64,000 bases of DNA, taken from IMG/VR virus record IMGVR_UViG_3300021960_000017; one strand, written 5' to 3'. The notes under the pieces are model-generated. The model did no database searches and was not told where the DNA came from. It worked only from the letters and a program-made list of their open reading frames with translations. Both the position numbers and the translations under genes were made by a program. Below are positions 46,982-57,954 of the stretch, in pieces. The stretch comes from a virus (Duplodnaviria; Caudoviricetes). How positions within the stretch are numbered: position 1 is the first letter of the stretch; every line of letters starts with the position of its first letter.

Positions 46982-47188
46982 ATGACTTCACTAGCAATGA
47001 CGGCTGACCATAGCCTACACTTTGTTGCAGAGTGGTTTAAAAGACTTAATGCAACTCTCACTCACAGAGCACAGATAAAAAGAACAATGACAGAGCTCAA
47101 CAAACTTAGCGACCGCGAGCTTCAGGACATTGGCATACATCGCACACAGATTACTAGCATCGCAATGGGAGTACACAGAAATGACTAA
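46982..47188 (+). CDS. DUF1127 (YjiS-like) small protein
   Basis: RTMTELNKLSDRELQDIGIHRTQI; AAGGAG RBS. Confidence 0.88.
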   Translation: MTSLAMTADHSLHFVAEWFKRLNATLTHRAQIKRTMTELNKLSDRELQDIGIHRTQITSIAMGVHRND

Positions 47189-47623: not shown

Positions 47624-47653
47624 AAACCGCCACTGCAAAGTGGCGGTTTTTTT
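47624..47653 (+). terminator. intrinsic terminator
   Basis: AAACCGCCACT-GCAA-AGTGGCGGTTT plus T-run. Confidence 0.85.
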
Positions 47654-47681
47654 ATATAAATAGCCTTGGAGGAGTACGGAT

Positions 47682-48128
47682 ATGAAAACTGTCATAGTTA
47701 CAGTTGTTTTCAGTTATGTACTGTTGACTCAGGCATTTGCAAGTGAGTTAAGGCAGACTTGGAAAAGCCCTGCATTTAGTGGACAAGGCTATAGCAGTCA
47801 TGTATTGACCATTGAAAATCTAACACATCAACGCAAAGCAGAAATTAAATCAAAAGAAGAAGCCGCAGCAAGAGAAGCGGAACGAGACGCTGAAAATACA
47901 AACATTAATAAGTTCCTAAGAAACTTTGAAAGCCGAGTATATGCTGAATTGAGTAAACAGTTAAGTGAAAAACTGTTTGGAGAAGCAGCACAAGACAGTG
48001 GCACAATTGATATTATGGGAAATACTATTGAGTATAGTAGTGATGGAACAGCCGTGACAATGATTGTTACTGATGCTGATGGAACCACTACTACTCTTGT
48101 AGTACCACTATCAGGATTTGGATTCTGA
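47682..48128 (+). CDS. csgF: curli assembly protein CsgF-like
   Basis: Signal peptide; ASEL....KSPAFSG.G; FLRNFESRVYAELSKQL. Confidence 0.8.
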   Translation: MKTVIVTVVFSYVLLTQAFASELRQTWKSPAFSGQGYSSHVLTIENLTHQRKAEIKSKEEAAAREAERDAENTNINKFLRNFESRVYAELSKQLSEKLFGEAAQDSGTIDIMGNTIEYSSDGTAVTMIVTDADGTTTTLVVPLSGFGF

Positions 48129-48970
48129 TGTTAAGACTTGCTGCAATATGTTTACTAGCCTTGGGCTTGAGTGGGTGTATGATGGGCCACGAAGTTGCAA
48201 AAACTATGGAGCCCAGTGTGGCAGTAACTCCAATGCAACCTGGATTAAGAGACTTTCCCAAAATATCCAATGGCAAGCCAGTAACAGTTGCAGTTTATAA
48301 TTTTCTTGATAAAACAGGACAACGCAAGCCTGCAGATAACATAGCAAACATTAGCACTGCTGTTACCCAGGGTGCAGAGATATATTTAATTAAAGCATTA
48401 GACGATATTGCTGACGGAAACTTCTTTGATGTAGTCGAACGCAACGGAATGGAATCACTTATAAAAGAACGACAAATTATTCGCCAGGCACGAGAAAAGT
48501 ATGATCCCAATAAAGACCTGGCACCATTAAAATTTGCAGGTGTTATTATTGAAGGTGGTATTGTTGGATACGATTCCAACAAACATACAGGCGGCGCCGG
48601 CGCAAGAATAATGGGCATCGGACCACAAACAGAGTGGCGTGTTGATATTGTTACGGTAGGTATTAGAGCAGTAAGCGTTTTAACAGGCGAAGTTATATTA
48701 GCAGTTAGTGCGGAGAAGACAATACTAAGTACCAACACCGCTATTAATGTATTCAGATTTTATGATTTAGGCACAAAAGTTTTAGAAATTGAAGCTGGCA
48801 CTAGTACAAATGAGCCAGTCAATTATGCGGTACGGCAAGCAATAGAGTTCGCCGTGGTGCAGATGGTAGAAGAGGGAAAGAGAAAAGGATACTGGAATTA
48901 TGATAGCACAAAAATTCCAGAAAAATTTATAAAGAAGGAGTCTACACTCGATTTAAGAGACGTCAAGTAA
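48128..48970 (+). CDS. csgG: curli secretion channel CsgG
   Basis: Lipobox LSGC; VAVYNFLDKTGQRKP, STAVTQGA, FDVVER, LIKERQIIR, IIEGGIVGYD, EPVNYAVR. Confidence 0.92.
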   Translation: MLRLAAICLLALGLSGCMMGHEVAKTMEPSVAVTPMQPGLRDFPKISNGKPVTVAVYNFLDKTGQRKPADNIANISTAVTQGAEIYLIKALDDIADGNFFDVVERNGMESLIKERQIIRQAREKYDPNKDLAPLKFAGVIIEGGIVGYDSNKHTGGAGARIMGIGPQTEWRVDIVTVGIRAVSVLTGEVILAVSAEKTILSTNTAINVFRFYDLGTKVLEIEAGTSTNEPVNYAVRQAIEFAVVQMVEEGKRKGYWNYDSTKIPEKFIKKESTLDLRDVK

Positions 48971-48995
48971 CCGAGAGTACTTTAGGAGGATTACT

Positions 48996-49697
48996 ATGAG
49001 AGGCATAGTAGTAGGAGGAGCAATATTGCTATTAGCAATGTCCAGTAGGGCATTTGCTGATAACTTGATCTATATAGATCAAACAGGCAGTAGTGCAACC
49101 ATAAACATTAACCAGGACGGTACAGGTAACCGTGTTGGTGCAAGTGGCGATGACAGCGTAAGTGATGGTGCAACCACCACTATGGACATCGATCAAGTTG
49201 GTACAAGCAACGTCTTGGATTATGATATCTATGGCGACACAGCCAACATTACTTCCAATATAACTGGTAACTCATCAGACATTGATATTCAGGTTGGTAC
49301 CACAGGCGGTAGCAACGGTGGATCAGATGATGTTGACATTACAATTAATGCAAGCGGCGGTAACTCAAATACAGTTAGTGCAAATGTGGGCACATCCGCA
49401 AGTGGTGTTGATGATGTTGACATTGATGTTGATATTACTGGCGGAAGTAATAGTGTAACAATAACAGAAAACTCAACAGCAGCAAGTATTTCAGATAAAA
49501 TCACAGATGTAGATATTACTGGTAGTACAAACACTGTCACAGCAACAAAGAGCGGTGCTTCACAGCACGACACAACATTGAATATAACAGGCTCAAGTAA
49601 TACATTTAGTGTTACACAGTCTGGAGCAGAAGCGAGCACTGTAGATGTTACAACGAACGGGTCTAGTAGTAGCGTTACTATTACTGTTACAGATTAA
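48996..49697 (+). CDS. curlin-repeat-like secreted protein
   Basis: Signal peptide; repeated I-x-Q/I-x-G-x-x-N units (IDQTGSS, NQDGTGN, DQVGTSN, ITGSTN). Confidence 0.75.
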   Translation: MRGIVVGGAILLLAMSSRAFADNLIYIDQTGSSATININQDGTGNRVGASGDDSVSDGATTTMDIDQVGTSNVLDYDIYGDTANITSNITGNSSDIDIQVGTTGGSNGGSDDVDITINASGGNSNTVSANVGTSASGVDDVDIDVDITGGSNSVTITENSTAASISDKITDVDITGSTNTVTATKSGASQHDTTLNITGSSNTFSVTQSGAEASTVDVTTNGSSSSVTITVTD

Positions 49698-50727
49698 TTT
49701 TGTAACAGAGTCACATGCAGCCGTAGGGCAAGTTGAACAGCAGTTGGGTACTGCTGAAGTGCTGCGATCTGGTGACAAAAAGACCAGCAGTGTTGGATTT
49801 GGCATAGAGATGATGGATGAAGTCAGATCCGGCAACGGTATTGTAGGTATAGGATTTGAAGATCAAACAAAAGTTCGTGTTGACAAACATTCAAAGTTAG
49901 TCATAGATGATTTTATCTATGACCCCAAGAAACCCAATGCAAGCAAACTAGGACTAAAGGTTGCGTTGGGCACTGTCCGATATGCCAGTGGACTTATTGC
50001 TAAACAGAATAGACAGTCTGTTAGCATCCGCACTCCCACCGCTTCCATTGGTGTAAGAGGAACGGCATTCAGTATGACTGTGGATGAGATAGGTCGTTCA
50101 TTAGTCATACTGTTGCCTAACCCGGACGGCACAGTAGGTGAAATTGCTGTTACAAGTGATGTAGGAACTGTCATAATGAATCAAGCATTCCAGGCTACAC
50201 TTGTTACTGCTACTGAAAAGCCACCTGCTAAACCAGTAATACTGGATCTATCAGAGGCAATGATTAATAACCTCCTAATTATCAATCGCCCTAAAAGAAT
50301 TGAAAAAGAATACTCAACAGATGAAGAAAGTAGCAATGTCCTAGATTTTAATGAACTGGACGTTGACTACCTAGCAGCAAATGAACTTGAAGAAGAGCAA
50401 TTAGAATTTACAAGACTGGACTTTAACTTGTTAGATGCTGATTTACTACAAAATATTCTGGACATTGTAAACAGACGATTAGCAAGTGCAGATCGTTTTC
50501 CAACCAATCCTATATTTTCAGGACAATACGAAGGTGGTAACACACAGATATTTGGCGGCGAGAATGAAGATTGGGAAATATACAGACAAGTTGATGGACG
50601 CATAGTTAGTATTAAAACGCCAAGCACACAGGATACTCAGATAATTTTAAATCAAGCAGGTAGTGCAGTTACATTACACACAACGGAGGATGCTAGTGAT
50701 TCGGTTATTACTATTACTCAAAATTAG
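49645..50727 (+). CDS. FecR-domain periplasmic protein
   Basis: Signal/TM; DEVRSGNG, FEDQTKVRV..HSKLVID, IRTPTASIGVRGT. Confidence 0.85.
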   Translation: MLQRTGLVVALLLLLQINFVTESHAAVGQVEQQLGTAEVLRSGDKKTSSVGFGIEMMDEVRSGNGIVGIGFEDQTKVRVDKHSKLVIDDFIYDPKKPNASKLGLKVALGTVRYASGLIAKQNRQSVSIRTPTASIGVRGTAFSMTVDEIGRSLVILLPNPDGTVGEIAVTSDVGTVIMNQAFQATLVTATEKPPAKPVILDLSEAMINNLLIINRPKRIEKEYSTDEESSNVLDFNELDVDYLAANELEEEQLEFTRLDFNLLDADLLQNILDIVNRRLASADRFPTNPIFSGQYEGGNTQIFGGENEDWEIYRQVDGRIVSIKTPSTQDTQIILNQAGSAVTLHTTEDASDSVITITQN

Positions 50728-51490
50728 CATCCTAGTTTTTACTAGCGTTGCTCATGCTGACAATATTATTAATATTGAACAAGTTACGAGCGGCAACTCT
50801 AATAATATTACTGTTAGCATGGAAGGTAGTGGCAACAAAGTAGATTACAGCTTTGGCGGCGCTGGCAATACAGTAACCATAGACCAAAAAGGCGATGATG
50901 GTTATGTTGGGTATACAACAGCCTGGGGCAGTGGAGCACAGTGGGGCGGCGACTTGGACGGCGACAATAATAACTTGAATATAAAACAATTATGTAATCA
51001 ATCTCCATGTGGTGGAGATAGATTTGAATTTCATATCGCAGGCAATAGTAATGATGTTGATTTTTACCAGGGATATAGAGCATATAGTGATGGTACACTA
51101 GATACGGTGGATGATTATGAATATGGTGGCCACTTTGTGCAGTTAGACATCCACGGTTCCAACAATAAATTTTTAGGAAGTCAACGAGCAAATAATTCAG
51201 GTCACGAACATTCAAATACAACTGGCATATATGGTAATTACAATAACGTTTTTGCTGTACAGTGGGGCAATCAAGATAAGACAATAAACTTAACAATTAA
51301 CAATAGCAATAATGATGTAGATATTGTGCAAAAAGGCAGCGCACCTCATACTGCTACCATCAATTTAAGTGGTGACTATGGAACAACTCTAGACTTACTG
51401 CAACAAAGTGATACAACACAATCTTATTCTCTGAGCCAAAACTGTCTAACAGCAGGCGGTTGTAGCGTAAGCGTTACACAGGGTAACTAA
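50663..51490 (+). CDS. second curlin-repeat-like secreted protein
   Basis: Signal ending AHA-D; IEQVTSGNSN, IDQKGDDG, VQWGNQ, IVQKGS, LLQQS repeats; alternative ATG at 50690. Confidence 0.7.
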   Translation: MQLHYTQRRMLVIRLLLLLKISILVFTSVAHADNIINIEQVTSGNSNNITVSMEGSGNKVDYSFGGAGNTVTIDQKGDDGYVGYTTAWGSGAQWGGDLDGDNNNLNIKQLCNQSPCGGDRFEFHIAGNSNDVDFYQGYRAYSDGTLDTVDDYEYGGHFVQLDIHGSNNKFLGSQRANNSGHEHSNTTGIYGNYNNVFAVQWGNQDKTINLTINNSNNDVDIVQKGSAPHTATINLSGDYGTTLDLLQQSDTTQSYSLSQNCLTAGGCSVSVTQGN

Positions 51491-51607
51491 TAAATACTAC
51501 AGTTATACAGATAGATTCAATAGCAAATCAAGAATAATAGTTTGAATCAACACAAGTAAAATACATCGATAATATTATAACGCCCTTATTTTGTAGAGGA
51601 GAGAAAA

Positions 51608-53668
51608 ATGAGGCGTCTATTATTGACTAGCGTCAGTGTGGCTGCACTGATGTCAACAACAGCCATGGCTGGAACTGCTAGCCTACAAGCATCAGGCATG
51701 GGATTGCTTGAAAACGAATGGGTTAAAGCAGGTATAAACACAACAACAGGTACACTAGGTTCAGGAAACGGCACAAGTCCAGGATTATTGTTTGATCCAA
51801 CAGGAACTGGAACATTCAACCCTAGTTACGACTATCTAACCCCAGGATCACCATTTGATGGTTTTGCTGTGAAAGTAGATGGAACAAATTACTATAATAA
51901 CAACGCTGGAAACCAAGTTAACATAACAAAGTCCGGAGATGGAACAGGAGATAATGTTATCGCCTGGGACGGCAGTGTGTCCGGTGTTTTTGATTTGACA
52001 AATAACTATGTATTGTTAGCAGGAAACCCATACATTGATATTACCACAAGTATTACAATGAGCATTGCTGCTGACAGTGTAAGTTTTGCAAAATACATTG
52101 ATCCAGACAGTCAGGGTATGCCTGGCGACAGCTCAGCAACTGACAATGTGTTAGGTTATGGAGTTATTCCAAGTACTAATGTTGCGTTCTCAGAAGCAAC
52201 TGTAAGTCGTTACGCATTAGGTATCTATACAACAGATACAAACGTAACCGCAGGTGTAGAAAACTGGACACAAGAAGCTGATGGCTATAGTGGCACAAAC
52301 TATACAGACGCAGATGGTAATGCTTTAACCTACGGCACTAGTGACGACACCATTGGTATTAGTTGGACATGGACAGGCGTTAGTGCAGGTGACGTTTTAA
52401 CAGCAAGTTATGCTTACATCTTTGGTCCAAGTGCATTTGATGCAGCAGATGATGCTGTATCAGGCGGAGCAGGTGGTGGCGACACTACTGTTACAGATGG
52501 TTGGGGTACAGTTACAGACGTTGGTTCAGCAACTGATGCGGCAGAAAGTGGCGCAACAGGCGGTGATTCATCACCAACAGTTGTTAGCACAAGTACAGAA
52601 ACAATTACAAGCACAAGTGAAGCAACAAGTACTACACTTCCTGTTCTTACAGCAAGTTTAACACATCATGAAGCAAGTATTGCGGGTGGTGTACAAACAG
52701 TTGACAGAGAAAAAACTACAACTGTAACTACACCTGTAAATGTTACAACTACAAGTTTTGTACGAACAACAACAACATATAGTGATGGTAGTACAACTAC
52801 TTCAGATGGCGAAGCCACAAGTACAGTAGTAGTACGCAACGATGTTGTTTCAAGTTTAGAAATACTTCCTGACTTATCAGGACGTATTGATCAACAGCAA
52901 AAAATGGATGCAATTGGTGAAAGTATTAACCGTGGCATGCATGTAGATCCGTTTAAAGCAGGTGGTGCTAAAACTGAATGGGGTCAAATGTGGGCAATAG
53001 GCGGTTATGGCAAAACCAAATTGGATAACAGTTACGAAGCAGATACACAAAGTTTTGGCTTACAAATTGAATTCCAACCAATGGCAGAGTGGCGTATTAG
53101 TTTAGGTGTGGCAAAATCACACACTGATCTTTCTGGTACAGGTAGCTCAAGTGACTTGGATAAAATAAATGTTAACATTGGTAGCATTTATGATTTAGGT
53201 AGCATAATACTTGTTACAGATGCTGGTATTGCTAAAAATGAATATACAAATTCAAGAGACATTGATGTTTATTCAAATGCTAGCCAATCAGAAGGTACTG
53301 ACATGATACTTAAACAGCGTGTATACTACAAGTTGAGTGACAGCATTACTCCATTTGTTGGTGGTGCCGTTACAAGAACATCTAGAGATGCTTATGCAGA
53401 ATCTGGTTGGGTAGTAACTGCAAGAGAAGTTGGCAAGGTAGAAGAAACTACAGAATACGGTGAAGCAGGCGTTCGTTTACAACATAGCGTTGCAGGCTTT
53501 GATGTATTTGGACAGGGTAGTATTACTACAGACGAATATATGACTGCAAGTGCAGGCATTAGTTACGAAATTACAGAAAATGCTAGTGTAAGCATTACTG
53601 CTAATGGTAGCAAACAGGATGATATGAAATCCGTATCGGGTAACTTATCAGCAAACATTAAGTTTTAA
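51608..53668 (+). CDS. autotransporter-like protein (passenger, S/T-rich linker, C-terminal beta-barrel)
   Basis: Signal peptide; S/T-rich linker; WAIGGYG...GEAGVRL...SANIKF barrel. Confidence 0.75.
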   Translation: MRRLLLTSVSVAALMSTTAMAGTASLQASGMGLLENEWVKAGINTTTGTLGSGNGTSPGLLFDPTGTGTFNPSYDYLTPGSPFDGFAVKVDGTNYYNNNAGNQVNITKSGDGTGDNVIAWDGSVSGVFDLTNNYVLLAGNPYIDITTSITMSIAADSVSFAKYIDPDSQGMPGDSSATDNVLGYGVIPSTNVAFSEATVSRYALGIYTTDTNVTAGVENWTQEADGYSGTNYTDADGNALTYGTSDDTIGISWTWTGVSAGDVLTASYAYIFGPSAFDAADDAVSGGAGGGDTTVTDGWGTVTDVGSATDAAESGATGGDSSPTVVSTSTETITSTSEATSTTLPVLTASLTHHEASIAGGVQTVDREKTTTVTTPVNVTTTSFVRTTTTYSDGSTTTSDGEATSTVVVRNDVVSSLEILPDLSGRIDQQQKMDAIGESINRGMHVDPFKAGGAKTEWGQMWAIGGYGKTKLDNSYEADTQSFGLQIEFQPMAEWRISLGVAKSHTDLSGTGSSSDLDKINVNIGSIYDLGSIILVTDAGIAKNEYTNSRDIDVYSNASQSEGTDMILKQRVYYKLSDSITPFVGGAVTRTSRDAYAESGWVVTAREVGKVEETTEYGEAGVRLQHSVAGFDVFGQGSITTDEYMTASAGISYEITENASVSITANGSKQDDMKSVSGNLSANIKF

Positions 53669-53674
53669 TGTACT

Positions 53675-53697
53675 GGGGGGCGTTAAGCCCCCCTTTT
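53675..53697 (+). terminator. intrinsic terminator
   Basis: GGGGGGC-GTTAA-GCCCCCC-TTTT, followed by TAAATA. Confidence 0.8.
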
Positions 53698-53713
53698 ACT
53701 AAATAGAGTTGCA

Positions 53714-55771
53714 ATGGGAAAACTTTTAACCAGCACTTGGATGGCTGTTGTAACTCTATTAATATTAGTCACCCTGCGTGTTTGGGACCCAGCTCCTGTA
53801 GAAACACTGCGACTAAAAGGCTTTGATTACTTACAAAGCCAAGAGCAAAAACAGCAAAGCAAAGACATTGTACTCTTAGACATAGGTGAACCTAGTCTGG
53901 ATGCGTTTGGTCAGTGGCCCTGGCCACGTGATTACTTTGCAAGCATAATGATGAAGTTGCGTGAAAATGGCGCACAACTTATAACATTTGTAGTGTTTTT
54001 CCCAGAAGCAGATCGTATGCAACAGGATCCTGCATTTGCAGATATACTGTCACAGGATCCCTATACAATACTAGCACAAACAGCAACTAACCGTGCGCTT
54101 AAAACACACGGCAAACACATTGCAGCAAACTGGATAGGTGATGATCCCACACCCTGGTTATACAACTGGCCCGGACTTGTTAAGAACATTGACCTATTAG
54201 AAAATGCTGCTAAAGGTGTTGGCATGGTTGCAGTAGCACCTGAAGTGGATAATCTTGTTAGACGACTACCCTTGGTGGTAAGGATTGCGGATCAAATATA
54301 TCCTAACCTTGCTATAGAGTTTATTCGTGTAGCAACCGGTGATCCTGGTTATCAGATTAAAACAGGTGAAAGTGGTATTCAGGCCGTAAGAGTGCCTGGA
54401 TATAATGTTGTTAAAACTGATCCTCATAGTAGAATGTGGATTGACTTTAACAAAACCTATGACAGAATTGAAGTGTCGGAGGAAGACTGGAGCAGGGTAA
54501 ATGGCAAGCATGTGTTCATTGGAACTACAGCAGCCGGACTTGCCAACTTCATTAGTACGCCAACGGGCCTTGTATATCCACATGAAATACAAGCGAGCCT
54601 GGTTCAAACAATCCTAGATGGAACCTTTATACAACGACAAGACTTTATGAACACACTGGAAGCAATAGCGTTTGCAGTGTTTGGCATAATACTCTTGTTG
54701 GTTGTTCCCCGTACAAGCGTCTTGCTCACAGTACCAGTATTGCTGTTATACCTGGGCGGCGTAGGGGGTTACAGTTATTATGAGTGGACAGATAGTAAAA
54801 ATCTTGTGGACGCAACCTTCCCAATGGCAGCGGGCTTTTTACTATTTGCTCATCTCATATACAATAACTTTGCAAGAGAATTCCGTCAGAAGATGGAAAT
54901 TAAAAAACAGTTTGCAGGTTATTGCTCACCCGAAGTTGTTAAAATACTTCAAACAAATCCGGACTTGATCAAGAAGGGTGTTAAAAAAGATGTTAGCGTT
55001 ATGTTTAGTGATTTGCGTGGATTTACTCCCATTGGCGAACATTATGGTGACGATGTACAAGGCTTAGGAGAATATATGAATGGGTATATGGACTCAATTA
55101 CCCGACCAATTCTGGAAAAAAATGGTATGGTTATTAAGTATGTTGGGGATGCTAGCATGCATATCCATGGCGCTCCTATCGACGATCCTAATCATGCTCA
55201 TACTTGTGTGGATGTTGGATTAAAGATGATAGATGCTGTACAAAAATACAGCGCAGAAAAGGTAGCACAAGGATTACCCAAAGCAGAGATGGGCTTTGGT
55301 ATTAACACTGGTGATGGCTTTATTGGCGAGATGGGATCAACTGCCAGACACAGTTATGACATTTTAGGCGATATGGTTAGCACCGCAGCACGTCTAGAAG
55401 CACGTTGTAAGGCATATGGTGTACTGTGTATTATTGGTGCAGAAACATACAAACGCACCAGTGACGACTTCTTTTACTTGTTCTTAGATAACCTACAGCC
55501 CAAAGGCAAAAGCACTCCAGACTTTATCTATACAGCTCTAGGTGGCGACAGTAGTGGTTGGACCAAACACAAGTCAGATCATATTGAAATGCACAAACTT
55601 TACAAAGCACAAAAGTTTGATGAAGCCATTGCGATGTGTAAAACGATGTATGGTAACTTTGATGGTAAGATGGACAAGTATTATGACATCTGGATAGAGC
55701 GTTGCGAACTAATGAAGACACAGGACTTGCCCAAGGATTGGAACGGCGCATTTGTTGCTACGGAGAAATAA
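53714..55771 (+). CDS. CHASE2-domain class III adenylate/guanylate cyclase
   Basis: IVLLDIGE..L...GQWPWPR CHASE2; three TM helices; FSDLRGFT, KYVGDA, GINTG, GEMGS, ILGDMVSTAARLE. Confidence 0.92.
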   Translation: MGKLLTSTWMAVVTLLILVTLRVWDPAPVETLRLKGFDYLQSQEQKQQSKDIVLLDIGEPSLDAFGQWPWPRDYFASIMMKLRENGAQLITFVVFFPEADRMQQDPAFADILSQDPYTILAQTATNRALKTHGKHIAANWIGDDPTPWLYNWPGLVKNIDLLENAAKGVGMVAVAPEVDNLVRRLPLVVRIADQIYPNLAIEFIRVATGDPGYQIKTGESGIQAVRVPGYNVVKTDPHSRMWIDFNKTYDRIEVSEEDWSRVNGKHVFIGTTAAGLANFISTPTGLVYPHEIQASLVQTILDGTFIQRQDFMNTLEAIAFAVFGIILLLVVPRTSVLLTVPVLLLYLGGVGGYSYYEWTDSKNLVDATFPMAAGFLLFAHLIYNNFAREFRQKMEIKKQFAGYCSPEVVKILQTNPDLIKKGVKKDVSVMFSDLRGFTPIGEHYGDDVQGLGEYMNGYMDSITRPILEKNGMVIKYVGDASMHIHGAPIDDPNHAHTCVDVGLKMIDAVQKYSAEKVAQGLPKAEMGFGINTGDGFIGEMGSTARHSYDILGDMVSTAARLEARCKAYGVLCIIGAETYKRTSDDFFYLFLDNLQPKGKSTPDFIYTALGGDSSGWTKHKSDHIEMHKLYKAQKFDEAIAMCKTMYGNFDGKMDKYYDIWIERCELMKTQDLPKDWNGAFVATEK

Positions 55772-56249
55772 TCCTAATAACTTTCTTATGCCAAACATAT
55801 TCAGGCCAGGGCACTATATTTGTATATTCAATCTGTGTTATATACCATGGTTTTACTAAGTTAAATCTATTATCCAATAGCAAATCGTTTACTCTGACTA
55901 TGGCATGATACATATTGTCTTTTGGACTAAAAACAGTATATAGTCTAGGTTTGTAGCCTTGCTCGTCAAGTAATGTATAGATTGTTACAGCAAAATCATC
56001 ACAATCACCATAAAACCTTCTGTTCTTTTTCACTCTATAACTATAGTCTATCCATAAATCTTCGCCAGGACGGTCACTTACATAACTAAAGTTTTTGTAA
56101 ACACGATCGAATATGTTATAAATTTCAACAGACCTGTCTTGCTGGCGTATAGCCTGATCTAGTATGCTGTTTATATTTTGAGCATAAACACCACTAGAAA
56201 TTAGCAGAGCAACAACTAGAGTGCTACACCAAACATATAGCCTAGCCAT
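55758..56249 (-). CDS. transglutaminase-like cysteine protease (LapG/BTLCP-like)
   Basis: Signal peptide; GDCDDFAV, YHAIVRV, LLLDNR (Cys-His-Asp). Confidence 0.75.
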   Translation of the reverse strand: MARLYVWCSTLVVALLISSGVYAQNINSILDQAIRQQDRSVEIYNIFDRVYKNFSYVSDRPGEDLWIDYSYRVKKNRRFYGDCDDFAVTIYTLLDEQGYKPRLYTVFSPKDNMYHAIVRVNDLLLDNRFNLVKPWYITQIEYTNIVPWPEYVWHKKVIRIISP

Positions 56250-56351: not shown

Positions 56352-56663
56352 TCAGGTAACTTTTTTGTTTGACTTAGAAACTTCATCGACCTCTTCCTCC
56401 TTTACAGATATAAGTTTGTCCTCGCTTAATCTGTGCTTTTCTTGATACTCTAAAATCATGTTTAGTTTTTGATTTAAGCGTATAAGGTCATTGTCTAACA
56501 TTCTTATACGATCAATAAGTGCAATTAGCGTAGTGTTTGCTTCGCCAATTACAGGCTTTACTGTTTTGGTGCTCCATTGCCAAACGTAAAATACAAAGTA
56601 ACCTAATCCTACTGCCGCTACAATAGGAAATCCAAAATCTTTAATTAGTTGTGCTATGTCCAT
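56352..56663 (-). CDS. small membrane protein, YvrJ-like
   Basis: LIKDFGFPIVAAVGLGYFV. Confidence 0.55.
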   Translation of the reverse strand: MDIAQLIKDFGFPIVAAVGLGYFVFYVWQWSTKTVKPVIGEANTTLIALIDRIRMLDNDLIRLNQKLNMILEYQEKHRLSEDKLISVKEEEVDEVSKSNKKVT

Positions 56664-56865
56664 CCCACTGTCCTTTAATAAACCATTTTGTTAATTTGTC
56701 CATCTTAACAAGTTTGCCGGTTTCGTTGACTACAAAAATGTCGCCAACTTCAAATAACTTTTTATCCAGTAATTCAGTAGGCCAGTTTGTATCAGGCACT
56801 ACAGTTAAATCACCATTTGGATCCTGTTGTATAGTGTAATCTATCCATGATTTAAGACCACTCAT
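56641..56865 (-). CDS. hypothetical protein
   Basis: 74 aa, coupled to both neighbours. Confidence 0.5.
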   Translation of the reverse strand: MSGLKSWIDYTIQQDPNGDLTVVPDTNWPTELLDKKLFEVGDIFVVNETGKLVKMDKLTKWFIKGQWDGHSTTN

Positions 56866-57143
56866 TAATCTCTCCTTGCATCTTTTTTGCCATCTGCTCT
56901 GGCAATACGGTCCATATCAGGACGCACTCCGAAAGCATTGCTCATCAAAGTGTCGATGCGTATGACATCATGGTTCATAGTTTGCACACGGTTGTCCAGT
57001 GCAGTAATGATACCTTTCATACCATTAATGCTACCTTCAACTGAGTTCAAAATAAATTTTACTGATAAAAAAACAAAATAGCCCGCTGCACATGCCGCGG
57101 CGATGGGGAAGCCCACCTCGGCTATCAGACCAAAGATCTCCAT
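56865..57143 (-). CDS. small membrane protein, paralog of 56352
   Basis: LIAEVGFPIAAACAAGYFV; ALDNRVQTMNHDVIRID vs ALIDRIRMLDNDLIRLN. Confidence 0.6.
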   Translation of the reverse strand: MEIFGLIAEVGFPIAAACAAGYFVFLSVKFILNSVEGSINGMKGIITALDNRVQTMNHDVIRIDTLMSNAFGVRPDMDRIARADGKKDARRD

Positions 57144-57200: not shown

Positions 57201-57554
57201 TTAAAGGAGTACTATTATAGAATAATATGTGATGTAGTGACAAAGTTGATCAATGCTAGTAAGCCATAGCCAAACTTTTCCATACTTTACATACGGGCTT
57301 CGTTTTACTAGTGTGCTTTTAACGAAGTCAATGTGCCAGTGCGCCAACCAGTCTATTATACCAGCGAGTAAGGCAGTAACAGGGCCAACAAACATAAGTG
57401 CTACGAAAAAGGTAGCAATGCCATGCAACCCGTAATGATACTGGGCAAGTTTACTATAATAGTTTGCTTTGTTTAGGGGGCCTTGCATACCTTGTATGCC
57501 AATGTCCACTATAGCATGCTTGACTAGCAATGCTAAGAAAAAGGTTAATTCCAT
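57201..57554 (-). CDS. DUF3307-like membrane protein
   Basis: KHAIVD, LHG, HWHIDFVK, DQLCH. Confidence 0.7.
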   Translation of the reverse strand: MELTFFLALLVKHAIVDIGIQGMQGPLNKANYYSKLAQYHYGLHGIATFFVALMFVGPVTALLAGIIDWLAHWHIDFVKSTLVKRSPYVKYGKVWLWLTSIDQLCHYITYYSIIVLL

Positions 57555-57594: not shown

Positions 57595-57954
57595 ATGAAT
57601 ATGCAAATAATACTCGGAAAAGAAATCGCAGATCAAGTTGGCGACAAATATATTGTCCTTGAACTTGACACATTCAAACACGACAGTGAACTTAAAACTG
57701 CCTATGCAGTACTTGATGCTGGTGCTATTCCTCTTGGGGAAATGCAAGAGATACCTAAATGGGTAGAGCATCATAATAAGATTATAGAAAACTACCGTAA
57801 ACAAAACTGGAGTTTTTGTGAGCAAATGATTGAACACTGCCAGAACCGCTGGGGTGGCGAATTGAATAGTTTTTACACAGATCTCTATGTTAGAATACAA
57901 GACTTAAAAAATAAAGAGTTATCAGATTCCTGGGATGGAACACTACAAAGATAG
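57595..57954 (+). CDS. stand-alone homolog of the C-terminal region of the CHASE2 cyclase
   Basis: Colinear similarity to the last ~115 aa of 53714..55771. Confidence 0.65.
   Translation: MNMQIILGKEIADQVGDKYIVLELDTFKHDSELKTAYAVLDAGAIPLGEMQEIPKWVEHHNKIIENYRKQNWSFCEQMIEHCQNRWGGELNSFYTDLYVRIQDLKNKELSDSWDGTLQR

Follow-up and report, generated by a model that had tools for sequence, protein, structure and literature searches.

We found that a 64,000-nucleotide stretch of DNA from a virus of the class Caudoviricetes (IMG/VR record IMGVR_UViG_3300021960_000017; the whole stretch is called the window below) carries a cluster of seven genes at positions 47,682 to 55,771. In this cluster, the curli export genes csgF and csgG and two diverged curlin genes are joined to genes for a secreted FecR-domain protein, an autotransporter and a membrane receptor cyclase with a CHASE2 domain. 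The cluster is the late-expressed viral type VIII secretion system (T8SS, curli) module known from marine T4-like phages of the HTVC008M/Melnitz group. We propose that it exports a curlin fibre, that the FecR-domain protein and the CHASE2 cyclase make up one envelope-sensing pair, and that the autotransporter is an optional surface-display protein. We give this reading a probability of roughly 0.6. Its observed basis is the identity of the genes, their order, the conservation of that order in many diverged phages, and the presence of FecR beside CHASE2 in many bacteria.

A preliminary description of the window, made from its letters alone, had reported seven contiguous genes on one strand and had proposed that they form a signalling circuit across the envelope. 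All seven genes are present, on the + strand, at the reported positions, and had been identified correctly:

47682..48128, + strand: CsgF, 148 amino acids (Pfam PF10614, E 3.8e-14; phrog_35372, E 2e-42)
48128..48970, + strand: CsgG, outer-membrane lipoprotein channel, 280 amino acids (Pfam PF03783, E 1.6e-48)
48996..49697, + strand: curlin-1, a CsgA/B-like repeat protein with a signal peptide, 233 amino acids
49645..50727, + strand: secreted FecR-domain protein, 360 amino acids (Pfam PF04773, E 4e-8; phrog_37870, E 4e-84)
50690..51490, + strand: curlin-2 (the reading frame opens with GTG at 50663; the ATG at 50690 is the likelier start and yields a signal peptide)
51608..53668, + strand: type Va autotransporter, 686 amino acids, between curlin-2 and the cyclase
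53714..55771, + strand: membrane receptor cyclase, 685 amino acids (Pfam CHASE2, E 4.7e-39; Guanylate_cyc, E 5.6e-18)

Open reading frames (ORFs) of the window match PHROG families of virion structural proteins, ribonucleotide reductase and tail-spike-like proteins, and the contig on record for the proteins of the stretch has 228,546 bases. The source metagenomes (DNA) are marine and estuarine; no RNA dataset was listed with the module or with the autotransporter gene. A megablast search of the 8.2-kb stretch against deposited phages gave zero matches, and relatives were found at the protein level only. The cyclase shares 47% identity with its counterpart in Methylophilales phage Melnitz and 38% with the one in Pelagibacter phage HTVC008M, both T4-like Kyanoviridae.

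The export genes are well defined. The N-terminal P-x-F-x-G motif of CsgF, which binds the channel, aligns with that of Escherichia coli CsgF. CsgG has an LSGC lipobox and aligns to E. coli CsgG at 37% identity. The two genes are adjacent in what the structural and ribonucleotide reductase matches and the Kyanoviridae relatives mark as a phage genome. No csgE, csgC or csgD was found among the ORFs of the cluster or in its flanks, the rest of the window not having been scanned exhaustively. The preliminary description had called the whole window free of csgE, csgD, a TonB receptor and an extracytoplasmic function (ECF) sigma factor; that statement holds for the cluster and its immediate flanks, which are the parts covered here.

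The two curlins are remote homologues of CsgA. In comparisons of profiles built from viral relatives (hhalign), curlin-1 and the C-terminal part of curlin-2 were homologous to each other (98%, E 1.7e-13), and both aligned to the repeat core of E. coli CsgA (curlin-1, 41%, E 2.7e-4; curlin-2, 68%, E 4.8e-5). Reversed controls for the CsgA comparison had probabilities of 0.1-0.4%. The AlphaFold2 model of curlin-1 (pLDDT 87, pTM 0.83) has a regular strand-turn-strand repeat, with strands of ~9 residues and turns of two. A curlin-2 relative in another viral locus (L105) passes the Pfam Curlin_rpt threshold (E 3.4e-8). The window's own curlins fall short of family thresholds: the NCBIfam CsgA match to curlin-1 has E 7e-7 and 29 bits, below the cut-off of 160.

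We surveyed IMG/VR for related modules with the cyclase as anchor. The flanks of the best 80 loci were scanned, and the counts given below come from the 53 with at least 7 kb upstream of the cyclase. CsgG was found in 52 of the 53 loci, FecR in 52, CsgF in 50 and curlin-1 in 49. The order csgF, csgG, curlin, FecR, cyclase was kept in ~50 of the 53, down to 41% cyclase identity. The cyclase and FecR accompany csgFG across these loci, so that the outcome named as refuting the preliminary description, a lack of such co-occurrence in other genomes, was not seen. Non-redundant relatives of the FecR protein and the cyclase number in the thousands. Two loci from bins of Bacteroidetes metagenome-assembled genomes (L010 and L011) have csgF, csgG, curlin, FecR and a cyclase (37-38% identity) and probably represent phage contigs that were binned with a bacterium, or else a cellular copy of the module.

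Much of this module has been described before. A csgFG operon was reported in pelagimyophages, within a hypervariable region (Zaragoza-Solas et al. 2020, PMC7029224). The full module was reported in podo- and myo-pelagiphages as CsgF, CsgG, CsgA/B, FecR, a second CsgA/B and adenylate cyclase, after a 'histidine kinase'; it was found at all 65 GOV2 stations and in metatranscriptomes, with gene ratios near 1:1, and FecR and the cyclase were noted to be absent from bacterial curli operons (Wittmers et al. 2022, PMC9599517). The annotations of Melnitz (MZ577097) and HTVC008M (KC465899) list csgF, csgG, a curlin-associated protein, a FecR-domain protein, a second curlin or hypothetical protein and adenylate cyclase, with the protein at the FecR position annotated as hypothetical in HTVC008M, and neither module has the autotransporter. 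The module is therefore far less new than the preliminary description assumed, its FecR and cyclase having been published with the rest in 2022 (PMC9599517). CHASE2 is not mentioned in that paper, and neither an autotransporter nor a barrel protein in the module is mentioned there, in PMC7029224 or in PMC9004378. What the preliminary description saw is in essence right, and its interpretation reasonably sharpens a module already in print. The core module is thus known, and what we add to it is the autotransporter variant, the evidence for a FecR-CHASE2 pair, the cyclase active site, the modular curlin-2 and two companion proteins.

One published account of these genes leaves out fibres altogether. 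Buchholz et al. (2022, PMC9004378) proposed, from structure models and synteny, that in Melnitz CsgG and CsgF have been turned into a gated pore akin to a pinholin or secretin, which would time lysis by depolarising the envelope or opening it; their paper says nothing of FecR or the cyclase. They saw no clumping of infected cells. A pore would also fit the two small membrane paralogues found alongside the module (described below), which weakly resemble a holin PHROG (E 1e-3 to 3e-3). The same paper states that csgA and csgB are missing, yet curlin-like, CsgA-related proteins with signal peptides are present in 49 of the 53 modules. A pore also leaves the conserved FecR-CHASE2 sensor and the adhesin-like payloads of the module (below) unexplained. 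Moreover, CsgG is an outer-membrane protein and cannot by itself depolarise the inner membrane. We consider a lysis pore to be very unlikely.

Wittmers et al. (2022, PMC9599517) read the module differently. In their account, viral curli fibres serve aggregation ('sibling capture'), defence against superinfection or nutrient import, FecR is an iron or ferric-citrate regulator, and the cyclase and 'histidine kinase' are general regulators of the T8SS. The fibre-export part of that account is identical to ours, and the gene order, global distribution and expression that they report are those of the same module. The two accounts part at FecR. In the FecR protein of the window, a cleavable signal peptide leads straight into the FecR domain (residues 27-200; the Pfam match spans residues 59-151 only); an acidic linker comes next, and then a conserved C-terminal unit. 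The protein has neither an anti-sigma domain nor room for one and thus lacks the FecIRA architecture. Neither an ECF sigma factor nor a TonB-dependent transducer is encoded in the cluster or its flanks. In addition, the genes most often found before csgF in the surveyed myophage loci encode the ~100-residue membrane and coiled-coil paralogues, which have no kinase domain.

The cellular relatives of FecR are partnered with CHASE2 sensors and not with FecI or FecA. Among cellular proteins, those nearest to the cyclase are full-length CHASE2 cyclases from Hyphomicrobiales (Bradyrhizobium, Afipia and Methylobacterium; 31-33% identity). In 40 of 80 cellular loci, a same-strand ORF upstream of the cyclase encodes a FecR domain; in 25 of the 40, it is directly adjacent. 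Where it is adjacent, the FecR domain is the N-terminus of a giant protein of 1200-2600 amino acids. Such giant proteins stand directly before CHASE2 cyclases in Bradyrhizobium and relatives (loci L015-L088; for example, L029, 994-7797), and in Afipia the FecR protein contains cadherin-like repeats, with genes for an ABC/HlyD export pair coming after it. These loci look like an undescribed adhesin-linked cyclic AMP (cAMP) sensing system of soil Alphaproteobacteria. Plasmids of Ruegeria and Shinella have annotated FecR-then-cyclase pairs.

The pair also occurs in systems with known functions. In Sinorhizobium meliloti, the 1209-residue product of an ORF immediately upstream of a CHASE2 cyclase gene combines a FecR domain (E 8.7e-15) with tetratricopeptide repeats (TPRs), and it matches NsrA by size and position. 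NsrA is an outer-membrane protein with a barrel as its C-terminal half, and it was found by experiment to be needed for signal perception by the CHASE2 cyclase CyaK. A FecR domain is also present in S. meliloti smc02177, which the same cAMP/Clr pathway targets. In Burkholderia, the 'BiofilmReg' operon encodes a LysM/FecR protein and a CHASE2 histidine kinase and controls biofilm (PMC5192318).

Because the phage FecR protein lacks an anti-sigma domain and its cellular relatives are partnered with CHASE2, envelope sensing is favoured over iron regulation. An iron-regulator role for the phage protein is unlikely on its domain layout, and with it we hold the account of Wittmers et al. as a whole to be improbable. 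The preliminary description's pairing of FecR with CHASE2 as an envelope sensor, on the other hand, finds cellular precedent in Hyphomicrobiales, Ruegeria, Shinella, S. meliloti and Burkholderia. FecR and CHASE2 are thus a portable sensing pair that existed in cells and that phages appear to have joined to a set of curli export genes. Complex prediction for the FecR domain (residues 27-215) with the periplasmic domain of CHASE2 (residues 25-312) scored 0.00, which gives no verdict, and we used it neither way.

We also considered a tighter connection, in which FecR links export to signalling. In that case, the C-terminal unit of FecR would dock onto the curlins or onto the base of the fibre at CsgG/CsgF while the FecR domain engages CHASE2, and the state of secretion or assembly would become a cyclic-nucleotide signal made by a cyclase with an altered active site (see below), possibly of altered activity or product; a single surface organelle would have the curlin-2 payloads and the autotransporter as its interchangeable adhesin heads. 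The final ~44 residues of FecR can be aligned over their full length to the last repeat of curlin-1 and of curlin-2 (hhalign, 20-30%, E ~1e-3). Reversed controls for the C-terminal unit were at 0.1-0.3%, with one control of curlin against reversed curlin at 15%. A relationship between the C-terminal unit and the curlin repeat is suggestive only. The free-standing FecR partner in Ruegeria is without the conserved C-terminal unit. On balance, such a docking arrangement seems doubtful.

The cyclase of the window has a transmembrane segment, a periplasmic CHASE2 domain, three further transmembrane segments, a class III cyclase domain and a conserved C-terminal tail. We read its catalytic residues by alignment to Pseudomonas aeruginosa CyaB (3r5g). 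The metal-binding aspartates (D433 and D479), the Lys/Asp adenine pair (K475 and D549) and the phosphate/transition-state arginine (R560) are retained, and all are invariant in relatives. Ser556 occupies the position of the transition-state asparagine (motif V-N-x-A-x-R). Without exception, 118 metagenomic relatives and 89 distinct cyclases of viral loci, at identities as low as 41%, have this Asp...Ser form, and Melnitz shares it. In contrast, all 78 of 78 cellular relatives, and HTVC008M, have Ser or Thr at the specificity position together with the canonical Asn. The change (Ser/Thr to Asp and Asn to Ser) is a paired and conserved one within a virus lineage and is not decay, and the virus-specific active site of the cyclase is a new detail of the module.

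A separate observation concerns the tail of the cyclase. An ORF of 119 amino acids at 57595-57954 (+ strand) is colinear with the C-terminal tail. We rejected it as a copy of the tail of the window's own cyclase, since pairwise BLAST was not significant (E ~1). It matches the tails (~+1700 nucleotides) of cyclases from a more distant viral clade (E <1e-5), and may represent that tail domain copied as a separate gene.

Between FecR and the cyclase is a slot that varied greatly across the surveyed loci, with 0 to 7 ORFs. Its first ORF is mostly a relative of curlin-2; there were 34 such slot ORFs over 44 analysable loci. In these proteins (139-803 amino acids in total) the curlin part is invariably C-terminal and the N-terminal extension varies. 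The N-terminal payloads of curlin-2 are swappable, which is also new. In several loci, the payload is an F5/8 type C domain (discoidin, galactose-binding-like) fused to a curlin-2 relative (L007, 7772-9661; slot ORFs of L107, L114 and L126). By their domain content, these fusions would be fibre subunits with a lectin-like head. The slot protein of L007 had been a candidate autotransporter; we rejected this, as it is a discoidin-curlin fusion.

The variable slot and the altered cyclase can also be taken as signs that the genes are not wired together. It is possible that the region is a hot spot of co-inherited envelope genes that act independently, and that the cyclase is a host-takeover or counter-defence enzyme in which the Asp and Ser change activity or product, with no relation to the fibre. 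The 0 to 7 ORFs in the slot are unrelated, the operon lies in a hypervariable region in pelagimyophages (PMC7029224), the paired active-site change is invariant and found in viral cyclases only, and in the window the cyclase position is bounded by a terminator (see below). Three observations argue the other way: the order csgF, csgG, curlin, FecR, cyclase persists in most surveyed loci despite the slot; FecR and CHASE2 are also together in cells that have no csg genes; and gene ratios are near 1:1 over 65 ocean stations (PMC9599517). Independent action is in our view unlikely.

The autotransporter is the part of the cluster that sets the window apart. Searched at full length it had no Pfam match; residues 400-686 match PF03797 (E 1.7e-12; 48 bits, cut-off 26). 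It begins with a signal peptide, and its terminal residue is Phe. The AlphaFold2 model (pLDDT 80.7) has a beta-rich passenger (residues 22-290), a very long Thr-rich beta-hairpin stalk (325-426), a helix (429-442) and then 12 barrel strands (459-684). Foldseek retrieved NalP (E 6.9e-12; TM-score 0.79 by target) and the translocators of EstA, AaaA, BrkA, Hbp and EspP. The signal peptide, passenger, helix, 12-strand barrel and final Phe together identify a classical type Va autotransporter. The fold of the passenger recurs in bacterial surface proteins that have PEP-CTERM, type IX secretion system (T9SS) or cadherin-type sorting parts, so the passenger, as modelled, appears to be a generic surface-display domain.

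The autotransporter family has more than 1500 metagenomic relatives. It was present in 8 of the 53 cyclase-anchored viral loci. We also surveyed 72 loci with the autotransporter as anchor, 36 of which had both flanks. CsgG, FecR and the cyclase were present in 27 of those 36, and the autotransporter gene usually precedes the cyclase. In five loci (L204, L208, L227, L233 and L235), it is between csgF and csgG instead. These different positions indicate that the family entered the module at more than one point. The preliminary description had placed this 'beta-barrel' in one module with FecR and the cyclase. We ruled out an NsrA-type signalling barrel: the protein has no FecR domain and is no FecR-barrel fusion, its 12-strand type Va barrel bears a surface-display passenger, and it is optional in the module.

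The signals for transcription in and before the cluster are as follows:

47624..47649, + strand: intrinsic terminator closing the upstream unit (11-pair stem, then a T run)
47655..47662, + strand: T4-type late promoter, exact TATAAATA, directly after the terminator and 20 nucleotides before the csgF start
51490..51496, + strand: relaxed late-promoter-like word AATAAATA, which fits the relaxed form NATAAATA only, 118 nucleotides before the autotransporter ATG
53675..53693, + strand: strong intrinsic terminator (seven G-C pairs and a TTTT run), which separates the autotransporter gene from the cyclase gene

Downstream of the promoter at 47655-47662 is a ribosome-binding site, GGAGGAG. An exact late promoter thus stands directly before csgF, in keeping with late expression of the module. 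As a word, TATAAATA occurs 8 times in the window against an expected 7.5, which is no enrichment. The preliminary description had placed three late promoters here. The first is exact, the one at 51490 is a weak match in the relaxed form only, and the site at 53699 fits neither TATAAATA nor NATAAATA and is dropped. With its own spacer and terminator, the autotransporter gene has the appearance of a complete unit that was inserted into an older operon.

Taken together, these results are consistent with the following course of events. Late in infection, CsgG and CsgF would form a channel in the outer membrane, and curlin-1 and curlin-2 would be exported through it; on the infected cell the two would then polymerise into a beta-solenoid fibre. 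Curlin-2 would add lineage-specific N-terminal payloads, and these payloads and the autotransporter would act as adhesin-like heads. FecR and the CHASE2 cyclase would be one envelope-sensing pair, inherited from Alphaproteobacteria and with the architecture of NsrA and CyaK. FecR, which would not be an iron-responsive anti-sigma factor, would report the state of the periplasm or surface to CHASE2, and CHASE2 would control the synthesis of a cyclic nucleotide in the cytoplasm. The autotransporter would be an optional, separately terminated surface-display protein (an adhesin or glycan binder) that was recruited to the envelope module, and would not be a signalling barrel.

Several results weigh against this proposal. 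Pfam Curlin_rpt gave E values of 0.04 and 2.5 for the two curlins of the window, both below the cut-off. Foldseek with the curlin-1 model against the PDB and AFDB Swiss-Prot returned weak generic beta-helix rows and did not retrieve CsgA, although we take this search as uninformative because the solenoid is repetitive. Melnitz-infected cells did not clump (PMC9004378). The autotransporter is outside any module in ~14 of the 72 loci anchored on it. The terminator before the cyclase ends 20 nucleotides from the cyclase start, with no late-promoter word after it. Further, there is the serine at the transition-state position of the cyclase. In mutagenesis work on mammalian cyclases, this change is reported to lower turnover strongly. 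With Ser in place of that Asn, output of cAMP is not assured. We found no cyclic-nucleotide-binding domain (PF00027) in Melnitz, HTVC008M and three related viral contigs (11 of 14 control genomes matched), so any signal would be read by host receptors or by non-canonical ones. Finally, contact between FecR and CHASE2 and a fibre that acts as the signal, both central to the circuit of the preliminary description, would be additional assumptions.

Four genes downstream of the cyclase, on the other strand, encode small or secreted proteins:

55758..56249, - strand: secreted BTLCP/LapG-like cysteine protease, 163 amino acids (Pfam PF06035, E 5.9e-7; 29.8 bits, cut-off 27)
56352..56663, - strand: paralogue A, a small single-pass membrane and coiled-coil protein (phrog_18771, E 4e-29)
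56865..57143, - strand: paralogue B, a small single-pass membrane and coiled-coil protein (phrog_18771, E 5e-30)
57201..57554, - strand: DUF3307 membrane protein (Pfam PF11750, E 9.4e-7)

Paralogues A and B have ~100 amino acids and an N-terminal membrane helix, and are 36% identical to each other. In 49 of the 53 loci they accompany the module, and their place is often immediately before csgF. The 'histidine kinase, sometimes two' of Wittmers et al. (PMC9599517) may correspond to them. We rejected holin as their identity, the similarity to the holin PHROG being weak. That two small membrane paralogues travel with the module is a new detail.

The protease gene overlaps the stop codon of the cyclase gene. 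Candidate Cys, His and Asp residues are visible in the protein, and the domain match barely passes. Neither a LapD- nor a LapA-like partner was seen. Only the closest relative (L092) has this gene, 1 of 60 related loci (and 1 in the 53-locus table), which indicates a recent add-on and not a component of the module. DUF3307 is near the module in 9 of 60 viral loci (for example, L091, 17943-18281). On the Shinella plasmid, genes for DUF3307 and for a cyclic-nucleotide-binding protein are a few genes downstream of the FecR-CHASE2 cyclase pair. The gene neighbourhoods hint that DUF3307 is part of the FecR-CHASE2 signalling neighbourhood. A gene for a small DUF1127 protein (46982-47188; Pfam E 1.2e-9) is just upstream of the module and was not found near the module in related loci.

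The module is among the most widespread accessory cassettes of abundant ocean phages. FecR and CHASE2 as a portable envelope-sensor pair is a sharper hypothesis than the published iron-regulator reading, and the cultured systems of Melnitz with OM43 and HTVC008M with SAR11 would permit tests of it. The autotransporter, the curlin-2 payloads and the Asn-to-Ser cyclase are experimental handles, and they suggest that the surface of the infected cell is remodelled with more than a fibre.

It is useful to compare the cluster with known systems. Like the curli system of E. coli (csgBAC-csgDEFG), the phage has a CsgG channel, the CsgF motif and secreted repeat proteins related to the repeat core of CsgA. 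It differs in that csgE, csgC and csgD are not in the cluster, which is a single operon with csgF first; in that its curlins are longer (233-275 amino acids), very diverged and below family thresholds; and in that relatives of curlin-2 bear N-terminal payloads such as F5/8 type C domains.

With NsrA-CyaK (and CyaD1/D2) of S. meliloti, the cluster shares a CHASE2 class III cyclase that is encoded beside a FecR-domain envelope protein. In NsrA, FecR is fused to TPRs and a large outer-membrane barrel and the signal is a plant ribosomal protein. In the phage, FecR is a separate secreted protein of 360 amino acids, and the outer-membrane proteins are CsgG and the autotransporter. The cellular cyclases retain the catalytic Asn. 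The BiofilmReg operon of Burkholderia (response regulator, LysM/FecR, CHASE2 histidine kinase and DUF4136; PMC5192318) likewise has a secreted FecR protein directly before a CHASE2 sensor, and a link to biofilm. Its output is a histidine kinase and response regulator instead of a cyclase, its FecR protein carries LysM, and it has no genes for a secretion channel or fibre.

The closest likeness is to the viral T8SS module of HTVC008M, Melnitz and the HTVC023P-type podophages, with which the cluster shares gene content and order, the T4-like Kyanoviridae type of phage and a cluster without csgE and csgD. What distinguishes the cluster in the window is the extra 686-residue autotransporter, separately terminated and placed after curlin-2 and before the cyclase, the BTLCP protease over the cyclase stop, and the larger contig of ~228 kb.

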